DNA of 64,000 bases from a virus. A program made the translations under genes and the position numbers. Every line of letters begins with the position of its first letter. Within the stretch, counting starts at the first letter, position 1. The notes under the pieces were generated by a model. The model was not told where the DNA came from and did no database searches. It was given only the letters and a program-made list of their open reading frames with translations. Shown here piece after piece: positions 4,211-34,800 of the stretch. The stretch lies in the IMG/VR virus record IMGVR_UViG_3300025168_000038, positions 32,001-96,000 of that record. One strand, given 5' to 3'.

Positions 4211-4528
4211 ATGACGTATAGACCATTGCCTGAAGGGACTACTATTAAAGAGTCCCTTCTCCATGGCCTTGGATTATATTCTACTAAATCTATTAGTAAG
4301 GATACAGTCCTAGGCATATCACATATTAGAAATACAAAATATCAAAACAATTATATTAGAACCCCGCTAGGAGGTTTTATAAATCATAGTGACACACCTA
4401 ATCTAAGAAAGATTGGTAGTGCTGAATCAAGAGATATAGAAGCAGGGGTTATGATGATCCAAACAACTAAAGACATCCTCCCCGGGGAAGAGCTAACACT
4501 TAAATATAATCTATATGCAATTGAATGA
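4211..4528 (+). CDS. Minimal SET-domain protein (putative lysine methyltransferase)
   Basis: HGLGLYS, GGFINHSDTPN and DILPGEELTLKY SET signature motifs. Confidence 0.88.
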   Translation: MTYRPLPEGTTIKESLLHGLGLYSTKSISKDTVLGISHIRNTKYQNNYIRTPLGGFINHSDTPNLRKIGSAESRDIEAGVMMIQTTKDILPGEELTLKYNLYAIE

Positions 4529-5792: not shown

Positions 5793-5984
5793 ATGAAAAA
5801 ATTTATTGAGTTTGCACTAATTTGGTACAGTCAACAGATGGCCATACCATTTTGGATCGTTGGTCATATACATTTAAGCGTAAACATATATCAAGACATA
5901 CATGAAATACTAGCTAGCATGGGGTTAAATCTAATCGTACTAGTTGGGTTTATAATAGACTATAAAAAAAATAAAGACAAATGA
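5793..5984 (+). CDS. Small membrane protein (63 aa)
   Basis: Hydrophobic segments with a basic C-terminus; ATGA overlap with the next gene. Confidence 0.7.
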   Translation: MKKFIEFALIWYSQQMAIPFWIVGHIHLSVNIYQDIHEILASMGLNLIVLVGFIIDYKKNKDK

Positions 5985-6283
5985 ATTCAAAAGAAAGAAA
6001 AGAGAGACCAGTCTATACTGGAGTATTAAAATATTTTCCTGATGCTATCCTGGAAGTAGCAAGGGTATCGTTAGCTGGGAACAAACAACATCATCCTGAT
6101 CAACCATTACACTGGGATCGTACAAAGTCTAATGATGACCTAGATGCTTTATCTAGACATCTTATAGATGCTGGTAAAATAGATAATGATGGTATACGTC
6201 ACTCTGCTAAAGTAGCGTGGAGGGCCTTGGCTAACTTACAGAAAGAAATAGAAAAAGCTTATATAATTAAAAATGACTTATGA
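5981..6283 (+). CDS. dATP/dGTP diphosphohydrolase-domain protein (DUF5664-like)
   Basis: FPDAILEVARVS..G..KH...W...DALSRHL...D..G..H.AKVAW.AL pattern. Confidence 0.8.
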   Translation: MNSKERKERPVYTGVLKYFPDAILEVARVSLAGNKQHHPDQPLHWDRTKSNDDLDALSRHLIDAGKIDNDGIRHSAKVAWRALANLQKEIEKAYIIKNDL

Positions 6284-14098: not shown

Positions 14099-14443
14099 TT
14101 ATAAGTACAGAGCAGATAGCTTTACGCTTGTCTGTGCTGAACATGTTATTGTTATATTACCAGTAGCATCATTAAAAGCATCAACTTCAAAAGGTCCTAA
14201 AAATCCTTCCTCACCAGCCGCTAAGCTAAGTACTGCATTTTCTTTTTTAAGTGTACCCAATAAAGGATCCACTACTGTTGTAACAACTGGAACTACTGTA
14301 GCTGTCATAGTTACACCTCCACCATTTTCAACATGAAAAAATTGTATTGCTGTATTTGCAAGTGTATCACCACTTACACCTGGAGTAACCGTTACAGGTT
14401 TTAATCCAGCTTGAGTTATTTGTTGTGCTGTTAATACTGCCAT
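14099..14443 (-). CDS. Putative head-decoration/small structural protein (114 aa)
   Basis: Beta-rich GDT..N....F.V.NGG pattern reminiscent of capsid-associated phage proteins. Confidence 0.5.
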   Translation of the reverse strand: MAVLTAQQITQAGLKPVTVTPGVSGDTLANTAIQFFHVENGGGVTMTATVVPVVTTVVDPLLGTLKKENAVLSLAAGEEGFLGPFEVDAFNDATGNITITCSAQTSVKLSALYL

Positions 14444-14453
14444 AATATTTTAT

Positions 14454-14699
14454 TTATTTACCGTTTACATATCCACTTCTAAAAGCAGCTGACTGAACTG
14501 GTTCTGCAGCTCTAGTAGACTTTTGTGGTGGATTTAAATTTGTTTTCTTTGCTAGCTTAATTCTAGCTGCAACTTTTTTCTTATTCTCAGCATTCTGTAA
14601 TGATTGTTGAATAGATGTAGGATTATAATATCCATTAGTTGTTTCTCTGTTATACACCTCTCCTTGCATAGGAAAGGATGCTTTATTTGCTTTACCCAT
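14454..14699 (-). CDS. Basic hypothetical protein (81 aa)
   Basis: Tightly packed in the operon; Lys-rich. Confidence 0.65.
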   Translation of the reverse strand: MGKANKASFPMQGEVYNRETTNGYYNPTSIQQSLQNAENKKKVAARIKLAKKTNLNPPQKSTRAAEPVQSAAFRSGYVNGK

Positions 14700-14704
14700 T
14701 TTTT

Positions 14705-14788
14705 TTATTTTTTAAGTAAGTGTGATCCATCACAAATTCCTTCAGAATTCTGCGTGCCACCACATGTACATTGATTTCTATTATTCAT
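14705..14788 (-). CDS. 27-aa CDGSH iron-sulfur-motif micro-protein (not in the ORF track)
   Basis: MNNRNQCTCGGTQNSEGICDGSHLLKK; fills the gap between the flanking genes (1 nt and 5 nt spacing). Confidence 0.8.
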   Translation of the reverse strand: MNNRNQCTCGGTQNSEGICDGSHLLKK

Positions 14789-14789
14789 T

Positions 14790-14987
14790 TTATTTTTTCA
14801 TTTTACCTAATGTTAAAGCAAGCCTAGCACGCTGTGCAGTCTTACCACTTCCTTTTGCTTTCTCTCTCAACCAGCTTTTTTTAATTGTACCATCTGCCTT
14901 CATGGCTCCTGCTCTTTTTGCAGTTGCTTTTAAAGCACCAGGCTTTTTAATTGCCCCTTTGATCCAATTTTTTTTCTTAGCTGCCAT
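14790..14987 (-). CDS. Highly basic putative DNA-binding virion core protein (65 aa)
   Basis: KKNWIKGAIKKPGAL...QRARLALTL; strongly K/R/A-rich. Confidence 0.75.
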   Translation of the reverse strand: MAAKKKNWIKGAIKKPGALKATAKRAGAMKADGTIKKSWLREKAKGSGKTAQRARLALTLGKMKK

Positions 14988-14992
14988 CCTTA

Positions 14993-15436
14993 TTATTTTT
15001 TACGTCCACTTGATCTGTTACCAGAATAAGCTCTTTTACCTGCAGCTTTTTTAGCTCCTTTACTTTCATCTCTTCTAGACTTCATAGATTGTTTCTTCTT
15101 TCCGTTTCTCATTCCTAAAGACTCATTTAATCTAGAATTGTAACCCTGCTTTTTCTTTTTCTTTTTAACAGCTCCACCTTTTTTCATCATTCCTTGTACA
15201 GGATCTAATACTGAACCACCATTATCTTTAAACATTTCTAAACCACCAGCTGCAGCCATTGTATCCATAGCCATAGCTTGTGGAGTAAGATCTCTCATTC
15301 CATCAATTGATGATGTAAAGCCTCCCATTCCGGTTCCTCCCATATCATATCTTTTCATGTTATTTACTTTTTTCTTTTTTTTCTTTGCTGAAGAGCTTCC
15401 ACCTATTTTGTAAGCATTTCTCATATTGTTTGGCAT
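14993..15436 (-). CDS. Lys/Met/Gly-rich basic protein with repeated xxxxGG motifs (147 aa)
   Basis: Poly-Lys tracts; AYKIGG, RYDMGG, MAAAGG, FKDNGG and MMKKGG. Confidence 0.75.
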   Translation of the reverse strand: MPNNMRNAYKIGGSSSAKKKKKKVNNMKRYDMGGTGMGGFTSSIDGMRDLTPQAMAMDTMAAAGGLEMFKDNGGSVLDPVQGMMKKGGAVKKKKKKQGYNSRLNESLGMRNGKKKQSMKSRRDESKGAKKAAGKRAYSGNRSSGRKK

Positions 15437-15448
15437 AATTTCTAAATT

Positions 15449-15850
15449 TTATTTGTTATTGTTTTTTACTTTTTCTAATGAACGTCCTCCAAAGTATGCA
15501 CCTATTACTGTAATTAAAACTAATTGTAATAAATCCACCCAAGAAGCTTTGACATCAAATGAAATAAAACCTGCATCAACAAATACTAATAGTACTGTTG
15601 ATACAACTAAAAATATTAATGTCATTGGTCTTACGTTCTTACTTAACCAACTATCTGAATTCATATCTGAACTCCATCTTGTTGAAATTTCTTTCTCCAT
15701 ATCTACTTCATGCTTGGAGATTAACTCTTTTATCTTTAACTCAGCAGCAAGCTTTTCATCAGCTGAAGTATGTAGCTCGTCTATAACTCCACCAATACCT
15801 TTAACTAATTCTTTAGCTCCTCCTGAAAATATTTTACTTAGTATACTCAT
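15449..15850 (-). CDS. Holin (3TM/GTA-holin-like)
   Basis: RW.SDM.SDSWLSKNVRP, two TM helices and AYFGGRS.EK. Confidence 0.85.
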   Translation of the reverse strand: MSILSKIFSGGAKELVKGIGGVIDELHTSADEKLAAELKIKELISKHEVDMEKEISTRWSSDMNSDSWLSKNVRPMTLIFLVVSTVLLVFVDAGFISFDVKASWVDLLQLVLITVIGAYFGGRSLEKVKNNNK

Positions 15851-18251: not shown

Positions 18252-19229
18252 ATGAAAGACATCTTTAAACCCAGACTAAATATACTACCCTATCAATATC
18301 CACAATTATTAGAATACAAAGATGCAATAAGACATTCATATTGGATAGATACAGAATTTAATTTCACAGAAGACATACAAGACTTTAAAATCACTATAAC
18401 ACCTAAAGAAAAAGATGTTATTAAAAAAACAATGTTGGCCATTGCTCAGATAGAAGTTAATGTAAAAACTTTTTGGGGAGACTTATATAAGCGTATGCCT
18501 ATTACAGAAATAGGAGATGTAGGTTTTACTTTTGCAGAATCTGAAGTAAGACATAAAGATGCCTATGCTAGACTGTTGAGGATCTTAGGTTTAGAAAAAG
18601 AATTTGAAACTGTTGTTGAGGTACCAGCTATTAAAGGTAGAATTAAATACTTAAAAAAATATTTAGATGGTACAAGAAGTAGTGATGATAAAATGTATAC
18701 TAAGTCTGTCCTTCTATTCTCTTTGTTTATAGAGCATGTTAGTTTGTTTAGTCAGTTCTTAATCATGATGTCTTTTAACAAAGAGAAAAACCTTTTTAAA
18801 GGAATCTCTAACGTTGTTGAAGCCACCAGTAAAGAAGAAGAAATACATGGAAACTTTGGTGCAGAATTAATAAACATAATAAAAAAAGAAAACCCACATT
18901 GGTTTAACTCACAGTTCAGGCAGTTAATTTATTCTGCTTGTCACAAGGCTTATGAAGCAGAATGTAAAATATTAGACTGGATATTTGAAAAAGGTGAACT
19001 ATCTTTTCTTCCAAAAGAAACAATTGAAAACTTTATAAAGAATAGATTCAACAACTCACTACAAAAAATAGGAATGAAAACTATATTTGAAGTAGATGAA
19101 AACAAATTAAAACAAGTAGAATGGTTTGATATAGAGATAACAGCTACTAAAGAAGGAGATTTCTTCTATAAAAAAAGTGTAGACTACAATAAAAAAAGTA
19201 AAAGCATAACTGAAGATGATCTCTTCTAA
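18252..19229 (+). CDS. nrdB: Ribonucleotide reductase beta subunit, class Id-like
   Basis: Ferritin-like ligands QIE68VNVK72, E98VRH101KDAY105, IEHVSLF and EEEIH; C-terminal DFF...Y. Confidence 0.93.
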   Translation: MKDIFKPRLNILPYQYPQLLEYKDAIRHSYWIDTEFNFTEDIQDFKITITPKEKDVIKKTMLAIAQIEVNVKTFWGDLYKRMPITEIGDVGFTFAESEVRHKDAYARLLRILGLEKEFETVVEVPAIKGRIKYLKKYLDGTRSSDDKMYTKSVLLFSLFIEHVSLFSQFLIMMSFNKEKNLFKGISNVVEATSKEEEIHGNFGAELINIIKKENPHWFNSQFRQLIYSACHKAYEAECKILDWIFEKGELSFLPKETIENFIKNRFNNSLQKIGMKTIFEVDENKLKQVEWFDIEITATKEGDFFYKKSVDYNKKSKSITEDDLF

Positions 19230-19239
19230 AAAAGCAAAC

Positions 19240-20865
19240 ATGGAATACAAAAAATATTACTGGCTTAATCAAGATAGCAGAACGTTTCTGTCTAGAGGTT
19301 ATATAACTGAAACACCAGAACAAAGAATAAAAGACATTGCTATTAAGGCAGAAAAATATTTAAACATCAAAGGCTTTGCTGAAAAGTTTGAAGACTATAT
19401 GGCACGTGGTTTTTACTCTTTATCTACTCCTGTATGGATTAACTTTGGTAAACAAAAAGGTTTGCCTATTAGTTGTTATGGTTCTAATATAGATGATAAC
19501 TTAGATAGTATACTAAACGCAGGCCGTGAAATAGGTATGATGTCTAAGTATGGCGGAGGGACAAGTGCTTTCTTAGGAAACATTAGACCAAGAGGTAGTG
19601 AGATATCTACAGGCGGTCATGCTGATGGTCCTATTCACTATGCTAGGATGTATGATACAGTAGTTGATGTATGTAAACAATCAGAAGCTAGACGTGGTGC
19701 ATGTGCAGTATATTTACCTGTAGAGCATCCAGATATTGCTGAGTTCCTAGACATAGGTACTGAAGGTAACCCTATACAAAACTTACAGTATGGTATTACT
19801 GTTACTGATGAATGGATGAAAGAAATGAAAGAAGGAGACAGAAAAAAACGTAAAGTTTGGGCTAAGATTATACAGCGTAGATCTGAGTTTGGATATCCTT
19901 ATATAATGTTTAAAGATAATAGTAATAATAATTCTCCATATAAAGAAATAGGACTTGAAATTACAGCATCAAATCTATGTTCAGAGATACAGCTGCCAAC
20001 AGATAGTTATAATTCTTTTGTGTGTTGTTTAGGATCTATAAATCTATTACACTGGGATGAGATCAAAGAGACTGATGCAGTACAAACTTATGTATACTTT
20101 TTAAATGCTGTTATGGATGAGTTCATTATCAAGTCAGAAACAATGCCCGGAATGAAAAGAGCATATAACTTTGCAGAAAAACACAGAGCAATTGGCTTAG
20201 GTGTATTAGGATACCATTCTTTATTTCAATCAAAGCTTATAGAGTTTGAATCACTAGAAGCTAAACAACTTAACTCAGAGATATTTAGAACAATAAAAGA
20301 TAGAAGTGAAATAGCCTCAAGAAAACTAAACTCTGAATATGGATATAGGTGTTTAAGAGAAGGTTATGCTAACACTACACTTATGGCTATTGCTCCTACT
20401 AAATCTAGCTCCTTTATACATGGTGCAGTCTCTATGGGTATAGAACCTATTAAGTCTAACTACTTTATTAAGGATCTTGCTAAGTCTAAAACAGTTTATA
20501 AAAATCCTTTTTTAGAGTGTGAGTTAGAAAAACATGGTATTAATAATGATAAGACATGGAAATCTATACTTAAAAAAGACGGAAGTGTACAACACTTAGA
20601 CTTTCCTACTAAGGCTGTGTTTAAATCATTTGTAGAGATAACACCAAAGGAACTTGTACTACAAGCAGCACAAAGACAAAAGTATATTGATCAATCACAA
20701 TCACTTAACTTAATGATAGACCCTTCTGTATCAGCTAAACAAATTAATCAGTTGTATTTGTATGCACATGAGGAAGGAGTAAAAACCTTATACTATCAGT
20801 TTAGTAAGAGTTCTGCACAGGACTTTGCAAGAAACATTTTAGAGTGTGGTAGCTGTGAGGGTTAG
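19240..20865 (+). CDS. nrdA: Ribonucleotide reductase alpha subunit, no ATP cone
   Basis: PISC, GGG, RRGA, SNLCSEI, APTKSSS, KTLYY and C-terminal CGSCEG. Start is probably ATG 19240 (track gives 19216). Confidence 0.95.
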   Translation: MEYKKYYWLNQDSRTFLSRGYITETPEQRIKDIAIKAEKYLNIKGFAEKFEDYMARGFYSLSTPVWINFGKQKGLPISCYGSNIDDNLDSILNAGREIGMMSKYGGGTSAFLGNIRPRGSEISTGGHADGPIHYARMYDTVVDVCKQSEARRGACAVYLPVEHPDIAEFLDIGTEGNPIQNLQYGITVTDEWMKEMKEGDRKKRKVWAKIIQRRSEFGYPYIMFKDNSNNNSPYKEIGLEITASNLCSEIQLPTDSYNSFVCCLGSINLLHWDEIKETDAVQTYVYFLNAVMDEFIIKSETMPGMKRAYNFAEKHRAIGLGVLGYHSLFQSKLIEFESLEAKQLNSEIFRTIKDRSEIASRKLNSEYGYRCLREGYANTTLMAIAPTKSSSFIHGAVSMGIEPIKSNYFIKDLAKSKTVYKNPFLECELEKHGINNDKTWKSILKKDGSVQHLDFPTKAVFKSFVEITPKELVLQAAQRQKYIDQSQSLNLMIDPSVSAKQINQLYLYAHEEGVKTLYYQFSKSSAQDFARNILECGSCEG

Positions 20866-21058: not shown

Positions 21059-21478
21059 TTAGTAACTTGCTTCACGCCTAACTACTTCTATAGCTCTGAC
21101 CATTTTGTTATAGTCTACAGGGCATAATAGATCAAGCTTAGCTCTTGCTGTAAATTTAATGTATGCATCACCCTTTAAATATAATAGTAGGGTTGGTGCC
21201 ATTCTAATTCTAAGTTCTTTTTTTAATTTTGGTGATGTTGCAATATCACATCTATAATATGTGACTCCTTCAAGTTTGTTAATTTTTTCCCAGTCTTGAA
21301 ACGCATTATCTTTATTAAACTCTGCCCAGAATTCTACTACAATTACATCATCTTCTTCATTTTCATCAAAAGCTGATCCTGCTGTAACTTTTTCTTCAAA
21401 GTTTTTATCTGTTATCCATTCCTGAGACAGTACAGTTGTTGTTGTTAAAAGCAATAATACTGTAAGGAGATACTTCAT
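21059..21478 (-). CDS. Secreted thioredoxin-fold protein lacking CxxC
   Basis: Signal-peptide-like N-terminus; ITDKNF...VVEFWAEFN and IRMAPTLLLY (cis-Pro loop). Confidence 0.75.
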   Translation of the reverse strand: MKYLLTVLLLLTTTTVLSQEWITDKNFEEKVTAGSAFDENEEDDVIVVEFWAEFNKDNAFQDWEKINKLEGVTYYRCDIATSPKLKKELRIRMAPTLLLYLKGDAYIKFTARAKLDLLCPVDYNKMVRAIEVVRREASY

Positions 21479-31800: not shown

Positions 31801-34800
31801 CACCTTCAGCTGGTAAAGGATCACCAGTGTTTAATTCTTCAAGGCTTCTATTATCTAATGTAAAGTTTCCATTAAGAAATTCATTTTCTCTTATTACTTC
31901 TTGTCTATCAGGAGTAACTTTACCATTAAAGGTTTCTATACTAAATACTCTTCTGTATACATTCTTTCCTAATGATGATACTAATGCAACACTAGTTCCA
32001 TTTACTTTTTCTTGAAAAACACCTTGACTAAAGTATGTCAAGAACAGCTGTTCATATTTACTTATAGTATAAGGGTTATCTAAATTATATTTAAGTTGAT
32101 TGTTTTCATCAGAACTAAAAAATTCAATTAGATTACTAGTTGATTGACCAGCCTGTAAAGAATTAACTGCATACTTAGAAAACAATACTAAGTTAGGACT
32201 TACTATCTTATTTAATTTTGATGCATCTATTTCTGATCTTACATCTTCTACATTAAATGTTAATTTAACTTTAGCATTATACTTTAATCTTGATCTATAT
32301 TTTAAATCATTATTATAGTTTATAATTGTTTGTTGAATATCCTTATTTCTAGGATCTTGTTCAGATGTGTTTAGAGTTTTCATCTGACTTTGTAAAGTAA
32401 TCTGTTTTTTATTTGATGGATTAATTTGTTGTAAGCCAAAGTACTTAGCATAAATAGTTGTGGCATTGTTTGTAAAACCACTAGGTTGACCATTTAAATC
32501 ACTAATAGGATTTAAATTTTGTTTCATCATTTTTAGTGCTGATTCAGGTGCTGCTATACTTACAGTTTGATTTTCTTTATCTAATTCTTCTAAGTTGACT
32601 CTTAAGTTGTGTAGTTTTTCTTGACCTGGCTTAGCAACCCACATATCATCAGAGTTCTGCATAGATGTTAACTCTTTGGTTAAAGTAGTATAAGACATCT
32701 TTATATATGTTTCACCATCAAAATACGCATACTTTTTAGAATTTAACATGTTGCCTTGAGATATAAGCTCACCAATCTCTTCCCATTGTAGAACTTCTCC
32801 TTGTTCAATTTTATTTAATGCAGCAGCTAATGCTGGTGTCATTTCACCAATACCAAATTGAAAATGTCTAGTGGCTTTTACAGTACCATATACTTGTGCA
32901 TCTGCAATCTGAATAGAATTTGAACTTAATCCAGACATTAATGTTGGCTCATTAAAAGCAACTAAATTTATTTTGTTTGTCTCATGCATTACCCCCAAAC
33001 GTGGGTCAGTTAAATATGTTTCAGCAGGTATAAAAGAGTTATTATTACCCTTTGCTCTTTTACTTTTATCAGTAAAGTCTTTTAAAACTTTAGCTTGATC
33101 ACTTAAATAAAGCTCATTTAATGATTTAACATTTAAGTAATTATTAAAAAACACTTGTTTAAGGTTATAAATAGGATCCATGTCAATTAGATTATACATA
33201 GCTGCAGTTGACTTAGCAGCTTCTTTAACAGCTCCAGTAGTACCTCTACTTATACCACGTACAATTTTCTTATCTATTCTATTTCTAACGTTTAGTGTAT
33301 CTATTAAGTTATCAAACTCATTAAACTTACTATCTAAGTTGGCTTCTAATTGTTTCTTAAATGACTTTTTATTTAGCTTAGCTGCTCTTAAAGCTTGTTC
33401 AAATGCAGCTGGCTCTTCTGAAAGTGCTTCTTTTATTAGCCCGCTTCTAGTATCTATATTTAAAAGTGTCTCATTATTGGCAAATGTTTTTGATCTAAAC
33501 TCTCCAGTGTTATACCCTTCTATTACATCAGTAGTTCTATTTGGACCATTCTCTCTTACTATTCTATTGTACTCATTCTCAACAAAATTATAAAAGGCCT
33601 CTAATACTTCATCAGTAATAACGTCTCTTCCTTGTATTTTTTCTACTGCTTTTATAATAGGTAAAGTTGTTTGATCACCTGTATTTGAAGACTCCATAAC
33701 TCTAATTAAATTTGGAGATATAGCAAATCTACTATCTGTACCATTTACAGGATTCTTAACCAGTACAGATTTCAAAGGTTTTCTATTAAGAGAATTGTAA
33801 AAAGCTAAATAGTTGTTTATGTTAGTAACTAAAAATTCAGCAGGAGTATATTTCCCATAGTCTGTACTCTTTAATGTTAAACTAGATTTTACATCTAAGT
33901 CAGCAGATAAACTTCTTAAAACTTTTGTGCCAGATATTCTAGATATCTTTACTTGATTATTGTCTGCTAAAGCATTAAATGCAGGTGAGTTCAATAAAAA
34001 GTTATTACTTAAATAATCATCCTGTAATAATCTTGCCCTCTCACTTGCAGAGTTTAATGCTCTTGTCTTTCTTAAATTAAATGTTGGTTGTTGATGTGAA
34101 TTAACTAAATCATTATTTGAATTCTTAAATACTGTAGCTCCAATTGTTTCATCAAATGATGCATTACCTAAAGCTAATTTTTTTAATTTGCTTTCTGCTC
34201 CCTCAGGTGAAAATAAATCTACTCCTTCTTTAATCAACTCAAAAAACACCTCTATATCATTAAGTGTCATTGGTTGTACATCAGGATGAAAAGATAGCAA
34301 TTGTTCTTGTGCTTTAGTAAGATTCTCTCTTGCCATAAGCCTACTATAAGACATATAACCTGGACTAATAGAAATACCTAAATTATCAAATAAAAGTTTA
34401 GATAATTTTCTAGATCGTTCATTTAATGCATTGTTTCTTATTGTAGTTTTTTTAGGTCTTAACTCTGTTTGTAATGTAACAAGTGCTTTTAATGCATCCT
34501 TTCTTATATTTAAATCATCTTGCCATAACTGTAGCTTAGATGAATATCCTTCTGACCATGAGTCTAATTGATTATTAGAATCATCTCTTTGAGATGCTGA
34601 ATGAACAATTGAATTACCCAACATATCTCTTTGAGTAAAAAACCACTCTACTCTAAAGTTTGTAAATGAATTAAGTACTTTAATCAAAAAGTTTGGGTTA
34701 GTAATACCTTCAGGAAACTGTTCAAAAGTAAAGTCTTCTGTATAACTCTCTGGCATATTAATACCTGAGTTTTCAAATATTTGGTTTACAACAGCTTCAG

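Follow-up and report, generated by a model that had tools for sequence, protein, structure and literature searches.

Proteins of the CDGSH (CISD/NEET) family carry the consensus C-x-C-x2-(S/T)-x3-P-x-C-D-G-(S/A/T)-H, in which eight residues separate the second Cys from the third (PMC5859297, PMC3174974), and were first annotated as zinc fingers (PMC5859297). According to Lin et al. (PMC3174974), the second-sphere residues of this loop are universally conserved and an integral CISD needs, besides the loop, an N-strand, a beta-sandwich and a lid-proline. Two evolutionary surveys of the family include no viral entries and no mini-forms among Flavobacteria, and full-text literature searches returned no paper about CDGSH proteins that are encoded by phages or consist of the loop alone.

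Lysis in the phages of Bacteroidota has barely been studied. The small cytoplasmic or membrane-associated regulators of phage lysis include the antiholins RI and RIII of T4 and S107 of lambda, and to our knowledge no antiholin is a Cys3His metalloprotein. Here we analyse a gene of 27 codons (the micro-gene) in a 64,000-nt stretch of viral DNA, hereafter the window (positions 32,001 to 96,000 of the IMG/VR record IMGVR_UViG_3300025168_000038).

The phage and the surroundings of the micro-gene

The window derives from a marine phage of ~108 kb that probably has a member of the Flavobacteriaceae as its host. The nearest cultured phage is the crAss-like Cellulophaga phage phi14:2 (Crassvirales), a distant relative as judged by DNA polymerase B (33% identity), in which no CxC...CDGxH motif was found. 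Seven giant ORFs of 1929, 4387, 1103, 934, 841, 1568 and 2219 aa (23079-62183, minus strand) are laid out in a manner reminiscent of the giant virion proteins in crAss-like phages; the three that were scanned (1103, 934 and 841 aa) had no match in PHROGs. The window also encodes thioredoxin (21059-21478, minus strand), both subunits of class I RNR (18252-20865, plus strand), a SET-domain protein (4211-4528, plus strand) and a protein with a dATP/dGTP diphosphohydrolase N-terminal domain (5981-6283, plus strand).

The micro-gene lies in a minus-strand run that encodes, in this order, a 540-aa fibre-like protein, a holin, basic proteins of 147 and 65 aa, the micro-protein, an 81-aa protein, a 114-aa tail protein and a 1071-aa fibre-like protein. 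The GTA-type three-TM holin (15449..15850, minus strand) was recognized by its match to phrog_3427 (holin, E 7.6e-31), the match to PF11351 (GTA_holin_3TM, E 9.6e-4) being below the cut-off. It is located three genes upstream of the micro-gene, on the same strand and in the same operon-like run, with two unrelated genes in between; the closeness of the micro-gene to the holin, already pointed out in the initial annotation, amounts to 660 nt. Of the intervening products, the 147-aa protein (14993..15436, minus strand) is a low-complexity, Gly/Met/Lys-rich basic protein with no family in Pfam or PHROGs, and the very Lys-rich 65-aa protein (14790..14987, minus strand) matches phrog_20603 (E 5.6e-9) and is found upstream of the micro-gene in some relatives only. 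The earlier description of these basic neighbours as core proteins has no support from any family assignment. The content of the 147-aa slot varies among relatives: in the window and in the homologous slots at loci L082-L132, the basic proteins encoded there are rich in Gly, Met and Lys, differ strongly from one another, match no known family and share a recurrent G-G-G-L-x-G-F motif.

The 81-aa protein (14454..14699, minus strand) is encoded directly downstream of the micro-gene and is followed by the 114-aa protein (14099..14443, minus strand), a homologue of the tail protein phrog_16194 (E 1.9e-8) with 52 related loci that served as a synteny anchor. No Peptidase_M15_3 endolysin, the only endolysin family sought, was found in the genome of the window phage.

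A conserved gene of 27 codons

The micro-gene spans positions 14705..14788 of the minus strand (stop codon included), and its translation is the 27-aa peptide quoted in the initial annotation, a loop-only CDGSH-type Cys3His protein with the putative ligands Cys7, Cys9, Cys19 and His23. Its ATG is found 1 nt past the TAA of the 65-aa ORF and its TAA 5 nt ahead of the ATG of the 81-aa ORF; as noted before, the ORF fills the intergenic gap, taking up 84 of its 90 bases. A 51-nt degenerate pattern for C-x-C-G-x-[ST]-x4-G-x-C-D-G-[ST]-H had a single match in the window, which is also the count for the whole 108-kb virus record, and none in 100 dinucleotide shuffles.

The synteny and dN/dS check proposed in the initial annotation was carried out on 132 related viral loci, for which the holin and the tail protein of 114 aa, on either side of the micro-gene, served as anchors. 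At the nucleotide level, the micro-ORF was present in these loci in 12 distinct versions, all of them on the coding strand, with the ATG 0-3 nt from the preceding stop and the stop 2-8 nt before the next ATG. Wherever the micro-gene is present in the lineage of the window, it stands directly 5' of the homologue of the 81-aa gene, and the 'p81' seed representing that gene was located 9-35 nt downstream of it in 12/12 type-A versions. The micro-gene is missing from ~60% of the syntenic relatives and the gap there shrinks to 6-10 nt, which marks it as a discrete accessory gene, not a spacer. Eleven positions are invariant in the 12 syntenic versions (M1, C7, C9, G10, T12, G17, C19, D20, G21, H23 and K27), and the codons of the invariant Cys, Gly, Thr, Asp and His vary synonymously among them. 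The same versions indicate purifying selection, with a pooled pN/pS of 0.36 and a Jukes-Cantor omega of 0.24.

These observations are hard to reconcile with a chance ORF or with a conserved non-coding spacer, such as a translational-coupling or regulatory element, from which no protein is made. An explanation of this kind would suit an ORF that is shorter than the usual gene-calling length, that encodes a peptide with no exact copy in a collection of 15 billion proteins and that is set apart by no sigma-70-like or terminator feature, the promoter and terminator scan at the micro-gene giving background only. However, frame, start and stop are kept in the 12 syntenic and in more than 100 non-syntenic versions, variation is concentrated at the synonymous sites of invariant residues, the motif does not turn up in shuffles, the gap vanishes where the ORF is absent, and homologues of 28-33 aa have been called and named by IMG and NCBI. 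We consider the absence of a protein product extremely improbable; the micro-gene is supported as a genuine stand-alone conserved gene, predicted to be translationally coupled.

Relationship to the CDGSH loop

All four CDGSH ligands are present in the window peptide in the canonical order (C7, C9, C19 and H23) and are the same in all of the 45 micro-proteins and 123 module sequences compared. The initial annotation was right about the ligands but not about their spacing, which it had taken to be canonical: C9 and C19 are separated by nine residues, compared with eight in the consensus. Nor does Gly simply replace the consensus Pro, as had been proposed. The window copy has no loop proline (S15-E16-G17), and its relatives have P-x-G, with the Pro one position earlier than Gly17, so the C-x-C-x8-C-x3-H spacing with Pro at motif position 11 is not found in the window peptide. 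The second-sphere residues of CDGSH proteins are represented by T12, D20, G21 and S22, which correspond family-wide to T/S, D, G and S/T.

Outside the loop, there is almost nothing to compare. The peptide is indeed little more than the motif, with six residues before it and four after it, and the N-strand, the beta-sandwich dimerisation module and the lid-proline are all absent. Motif position 1, hydrophobic in canonical domains, is Gln in the window peptide and polar in the micro-proteins, and the residue before the third Cys, again hydrophobic in canonical domains, is variable in the micro-proteins. The search with the Pfam model zf-CDGSH (PF09360), which the initial annotation had suggested as a check, gave the window peptide 13.7 bits, below the gathering threshold of 29.5 (homologues scored 13-15 bits), and the match was confined to profile positions 32-47 of 48.

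The relationship became apparent in a profile-profile comparison. We aligned the 45 micro-proteins with 16 canonical single-domain CDGSH proteins from Bacteroidia genomes and obtained an hhalign probability of 95.5% (E 1.5e-8) over 21 columns with one single-residue gap. The canonical single-domain family is present in 79/151 sampled Bacteroidia genomes, a tally that counts the unpublished genome G494, whose sequence was left out of the comparison. Micro-proteins and canonical domains have in common C-x-C-G-x-[ST]-x-N, a proline and C-D-G-[ST]-H; these shared residues include the universally conserved second-sphere set of Lin et al. The alignment supports homology of the CDGSH loop.

Other searches added little. 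No model in PHROGs or NCBIfam matched the peptide, and a profile search of the PDB returned only chance NPDG matches to designed trefoils and weak CDGSH matches (E 1.1-1.4); besides 3TBM and 3S2Q, no CDGSH entry was among the weak sequence matches in the PDB. An AlphaFold model of a 33-aa homologue had a pLDDT of 71.5, the size of the protein limiting what such a fold can tell, and this tiny query had no structural match in Foldseek against the PDB or in a wide VIA-align search. On the evidence of these comparisons, the micro-protein is a homologue of the CDGSH cluster-binding loop, which is the sole detectable relationship of the window peptide, and it is not a canonical CDGSH domain; the CDGSH identity given in the initial annotation therefore holds for the loop and not for the features outside it. 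As the N-strand, beta-sandwich and lid-proline are missing, any bound cluster would be very exposed.

Viral family and its forms

The window peptide is not a one-off: by its motif, it is a member of a large family of 22-60 aa proteins shared with Flavobacteriaceae chromosomes. Among the matches listed, the in-frame module pattern occurred in at least 119 IMG/VR contigs and 105 unique ORFs, ~50 of which encode stand-alone proteins of 22-33 aa. Other viral forms include proteins of 38-45 aa whose C-terminal tails are conserved, a family of ~109 aa in which the module is N-terminal, proteins of 82-120 aa that combine the module with a SAP/Rho_N-like N-terminus, and XkdF-type proteases of 383-595 aa (PF14550 + DUF3721) with the module at the C-terminus. 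In the 123 distinct module sequences, every invariant residue (Cys, Gly, Asp or His) is encoded by several synonymous codons.

Several of the longer forms have unusual architectures. Proteins of 38-43 aa (L213:506-634, L225:1385-1498, L230, L237, L246, L277, L309 and L310) have the hydrophobic C-terminal tail L-F-D/E-M-N-x-L-P-F-P-Y/F-L, which may be a holin- or membrane-contacting motif; these forms start 3-12 nt past the stop of the holin gene in cassettes of the order M15, holin, micro-gene. In the 42-45 aa proteins from L243, L254 and L260 the module is followed by an acidic tail with D-V-P-F that recalls the C-terminal tip of SSB. The XkdF-type serine proteases (PF14550) with DUF3721 from L170:1294-3057, L221, L248 and other contigs have the module as their last 20 residues. 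A 96-aa protein (L288:3130-3420) has two tandem modules; the first, C-x-C-G-R-S-P-T-G-x-C-x-G-W-H, is a variant that lacks both the D and the S and whose loop is shorter.

Loop-only CDGSH ORFs with the canonical 8-residue loop (x8) are also common in viral contigs (51/96 unique ORFs are of 60 aa or less), and the idea that the 9-residue loop accompanies the loss of the beta-sandwich was accordingly dropped. Many of the x8 forms, found in viral contigs L340-L459, are of 24-60 aa. Searches of 50,697 GenBank phage records by tblastn with three family members gave no credible match and thus no cultured carrier. In the ESM Atlas, the look-alikes were unnamed clusters of 30-44 aa and one 38-aa cluster with PF09360.

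Copies in Flavobacteriaceae chromosomes

The module was found in 15/401 Flavobacteriaceae genomes, in 17 places (the reversed-pattern control gave 0), and all 15 are genomes or MAGs of no more than 2.7 Mb. At 8/9 loci examined, a YceI-family gene is directly upstream (within 10 nt) of the 26-32 aa ORF, and a gene for a MarR- or HxlR-type regulator is found beside the YceI-micro pair in those loci. At two loci the micro-gene is followed by genes for an NAD(P)H-FMN reductase and a pirin-like protein; the pirin-like assignment was made by eye, as NCBIfam gave no match. The bacterial YceI context was seen in none of the viral loci. Some members bear the IMG label 'CDGSH-type Zn-finger protein', a historical name, and for the flavobacterial entries of 28-33 aa a literature search found no study, only the automatic name.

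Two further observations were made on the chromosomal copies. In P0004 (JGI/IMG, 185 aa), a YceI-like protein and the micro-protein are naturally fused by read-through; this fusion would put the module on a Sec-exported protein, which fits badly with Fe-S loading. A Flavobacteriaceae MAG contig (JAPKAF010000051.1, L195:3190-3300) contains a frameshifted, start-less relic of the micro-gene, broken in a run of C, with a YceI gene just before it and a terminator after it; an intact copy is present on a different contig of the same MAG (G001:C29:98-148).

Proximity to lysis genes

Among the immediate neighbours of 51 other stand-alone copies, Peptidase_M15_3 endolysins are the commonest (13 cases), and holins are found as well. 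We scored proximity by tblastn with holin (phrog_3427) and Peptidase_M15_3 seeds, which detect this type of holin and endolysin only, using a cut-off of 2.5 kb on the same strand. Among the matches listed, 42/58 unique forms of up to 36 aa and 17/25 unique forms of 37-60 aa are near a holin and/or an M15 endolysin; for the short forms combined (22-60 aa) the count is 59/83, in about six gene arrangements and mostly at less than 700 nt. The fused forms of more than 60 aa reached 3/49 among the matches listed, and the x8-spaced CDGSH ORFs 0/96, control values that argue against an artefact of the data set. With the 10 loci fetched via the holin and tail anchors removed, the Fisher test gave p 2.6e-12, a value to be read with the caveat that the ORFs counted, though unique, do not stand for independent evolutionary events.

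In the window, the holin gene is followed, after the two intervening genes, by the micro-gene and the 81-aa gene. Elsewhere the order is two-TM protein, micro-gene, small TM protein, M15 and holin; M15, holin and a micro-gene with a tail, which starts 3-12 nt past the holin stop; holin directly followed by the micro-gene; M15 followed by the micro-gene; or micro-gene, M15 and holin. Some copies overlap a preceding membrane-protein gene, and others adjoin genes for thioredoxin, GroEL, terminase or NinG. Thus, same-strand adjacency to holin or endolysin genes recurs across lineages, with the micro-gene of the phages closely abutting the flanking genes. Accessory genes are commonly inserted near lysis genes, and this weighs against a lysis role.

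Proposed metal centre and possible role

Taken as a whole, the evidence leads us to favour, with fair confidence, a Cys3His and probably [2Fe-2S] micro-protein that would serve the phage as an accessory factor of the lysis cassette. Cys7, Cys9, Cys19 and His23 would hold the metal centre, and it appears rather probable that this centre is a labile [2Fe-2S] cluster, redox- and pH-sensitive as in characterised CDGSH proteins and probably stabilised through dimerisation of the peptide or its docking to a partner. We favour [2Fe-2S] since it is what the characterised CDGSH motifs all bind, since the second-sphere residues have been retained along with the ligands and since the bacterial neighbours are redox enzymes and redox-type regulators. 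The phage gene may be a copy of a host redox-stress micro-protein. More tentatively, we suggest that the phage copy, a small cytoplasmic metalloprotein, acts together with the holin/endolysin system, perhaps so that lysis is timed or carried out according to the state of the dying cell with respect to redox, Fe-S or pH. The initial annotation had hinted at lysis timing, and synteny with lysis genes across lineages lends that hint real support; the timing effect itself we infer. Its other suggestion, iron capture, is unsupported.

As the main alternative for the metal centre, the loop might instead bind a single Zn(II) or another single metal ion, which would make it a structural Cys3His knuckle in a protein- or nucleic-acid-binding adaptor. 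Zinc knuckles of 25-30 aa are common, but C-x-C would be an unusual first pair for one of them. A [2Fe-2S] cluster would be poorly held by a 27-aa peptide that lacks the beta-sandwich and lid-proline as shielding, and the loop of the peptide exceeds that of any characterised CDGSH protein by one residue; yet every CDGSH motif tested so far binds [2Fe-2S] (PMC5859297), and the micro-family keeps, besides the ligands, the second-sphere residues G5, S/T7, D14, G15 and S/T16. The attachment of the module to SAP/Rho_N-like helices, to SSB-tip-like tails and to XkdF-type proteases, which also bear DUF3721, another Cys/His mini-domain, follows the pattern of zinc-finger adaptors, and the YceI fusion and the IMG name, historical as it is, are in line with zinc. 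The FMN reductase, pirin and MarR/HxlR neighbours in bacteria, however, point to redox chemistry, and we consider a zinc knuckle unlikely.

A different question is whether the location next to lysis genes reflects function. The micro-gene could be a host-derived moron or AMG that tunes the quinone or oxidative-stress response, its proximity to lysis genes reflecting merely a permissive insertion site in the late operon. This would agree with the stress-type MarR/HxlR-YceI operons that harbour the chromosomal copies, with the thioredoxin and RNR encoded by the window phage itself and with the copies that adjoin thioredoxin, GroEL, terminase or NinG genes. The gene is also dispensable, being missing from many syntenic relatives and from phi14:2, and the window copy sits among tail-associated genes with no adjoining endolysin. 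A permissive site alone, however, does not readily explain why adjacency to holin and endolysin genes recurs in about six gene orders, why some copies begin within a few nucleotides of a holin stop or overlap a membrane-protein gene, and why the fused forms and the x8 micro-forms have no such adjacency. A moron without a part in lysis is doubtful in our opinion. The most far-reaching version of the preferred reading, namely that the peptides of 22-33 residues are the smallest natural Fe-S proteins, bare CDGSH loops with a labile [2Fe-2S] cluster held in a dimer or on a partner, as well as a new class of redox- or iron-sensing regulators of holin-triggered lysis in phages of marine Flavobacteriaceae, borrowed from a host quinone/oxidative-stress operon, appears improbable as a whole.

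The mini-protein family as such is large and undescribed, automatic annotation having named a few of its members, and it exemplifies a widespread family, shared by hosts and phages, that gene callers systematically miss. Structural work has it that the CDGSH loop needs the beta-sandwich, the N-strand and the lid-proline and must come in pairs, a view challenged by hundreds of conserved loop-only genes. If a cluster is bound, ~25 residues would suffice for a minimal natural unit of the Fe-S (or Cys3His metal) type. That a metal-binding micro-protein recurs in lysis cassettes suggests that lysis control in Bacteroidota phages has an input that has gone unrecognised, for example redox state, iron or pH. 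For Fe-S biochemists the interest of the family lies in a possible minimal natural cluster-binding unit, for phage biologists in what may be a new component of the lysis cassette.

Comparison with known systems

The closest characterised proteins are the CISD/NEET proteins (PF09360), especially the prokaryotic type 4 RsCISD (PDB 3TBM) and the single-domain forms of Bacteroidia, with which the micro-protein shares the 3Cys-1His ligand set, the order C-x-C-G-x-[ST]-x-N ... C-D-G-[ST]-H and, as judged by profile-profile comparison, a homologous loop. It differs from them in size (22-33 aa for whole members of the micro-family, whereas the CISDs described so far have no fewer than about 60 aa), in having nine instead of eight loop residues, in the shifted proline, absent from the window copy, and in the polar residue at position 1. 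The x8 micro-proteins of viral contigs (24-60 aa, stand-alone) likewise keep only the CDGSH loop but, unlike the window family, have the 8-residue loop with its proline, and none of them is near the holin or M15 seeds.

The same loop and the same length, at ~50-65% identity, are found in the 28-33 aa 'CDGSH-type Zn-finger protein' entries of IMG and NCBI from marine Flavobacteriaceae and in the 30-44 aa clusters of the ESM Atlas; those entries are chromosomal and come after yceI in MarR/HxlR operons, whereas the window copy belongs to the late/lysis region of a phage. With the phage antiholins (RI and RIII of T4, S107 of lambda) the micro-protein has no sequence or structural relationship, and the likeness is one of functional analogy: they too are products of small accessory genes of the lysis cassette that are dispensable for lysis itself, and by this analogy a role in the timing of lysis is plausible for the micro-protein.
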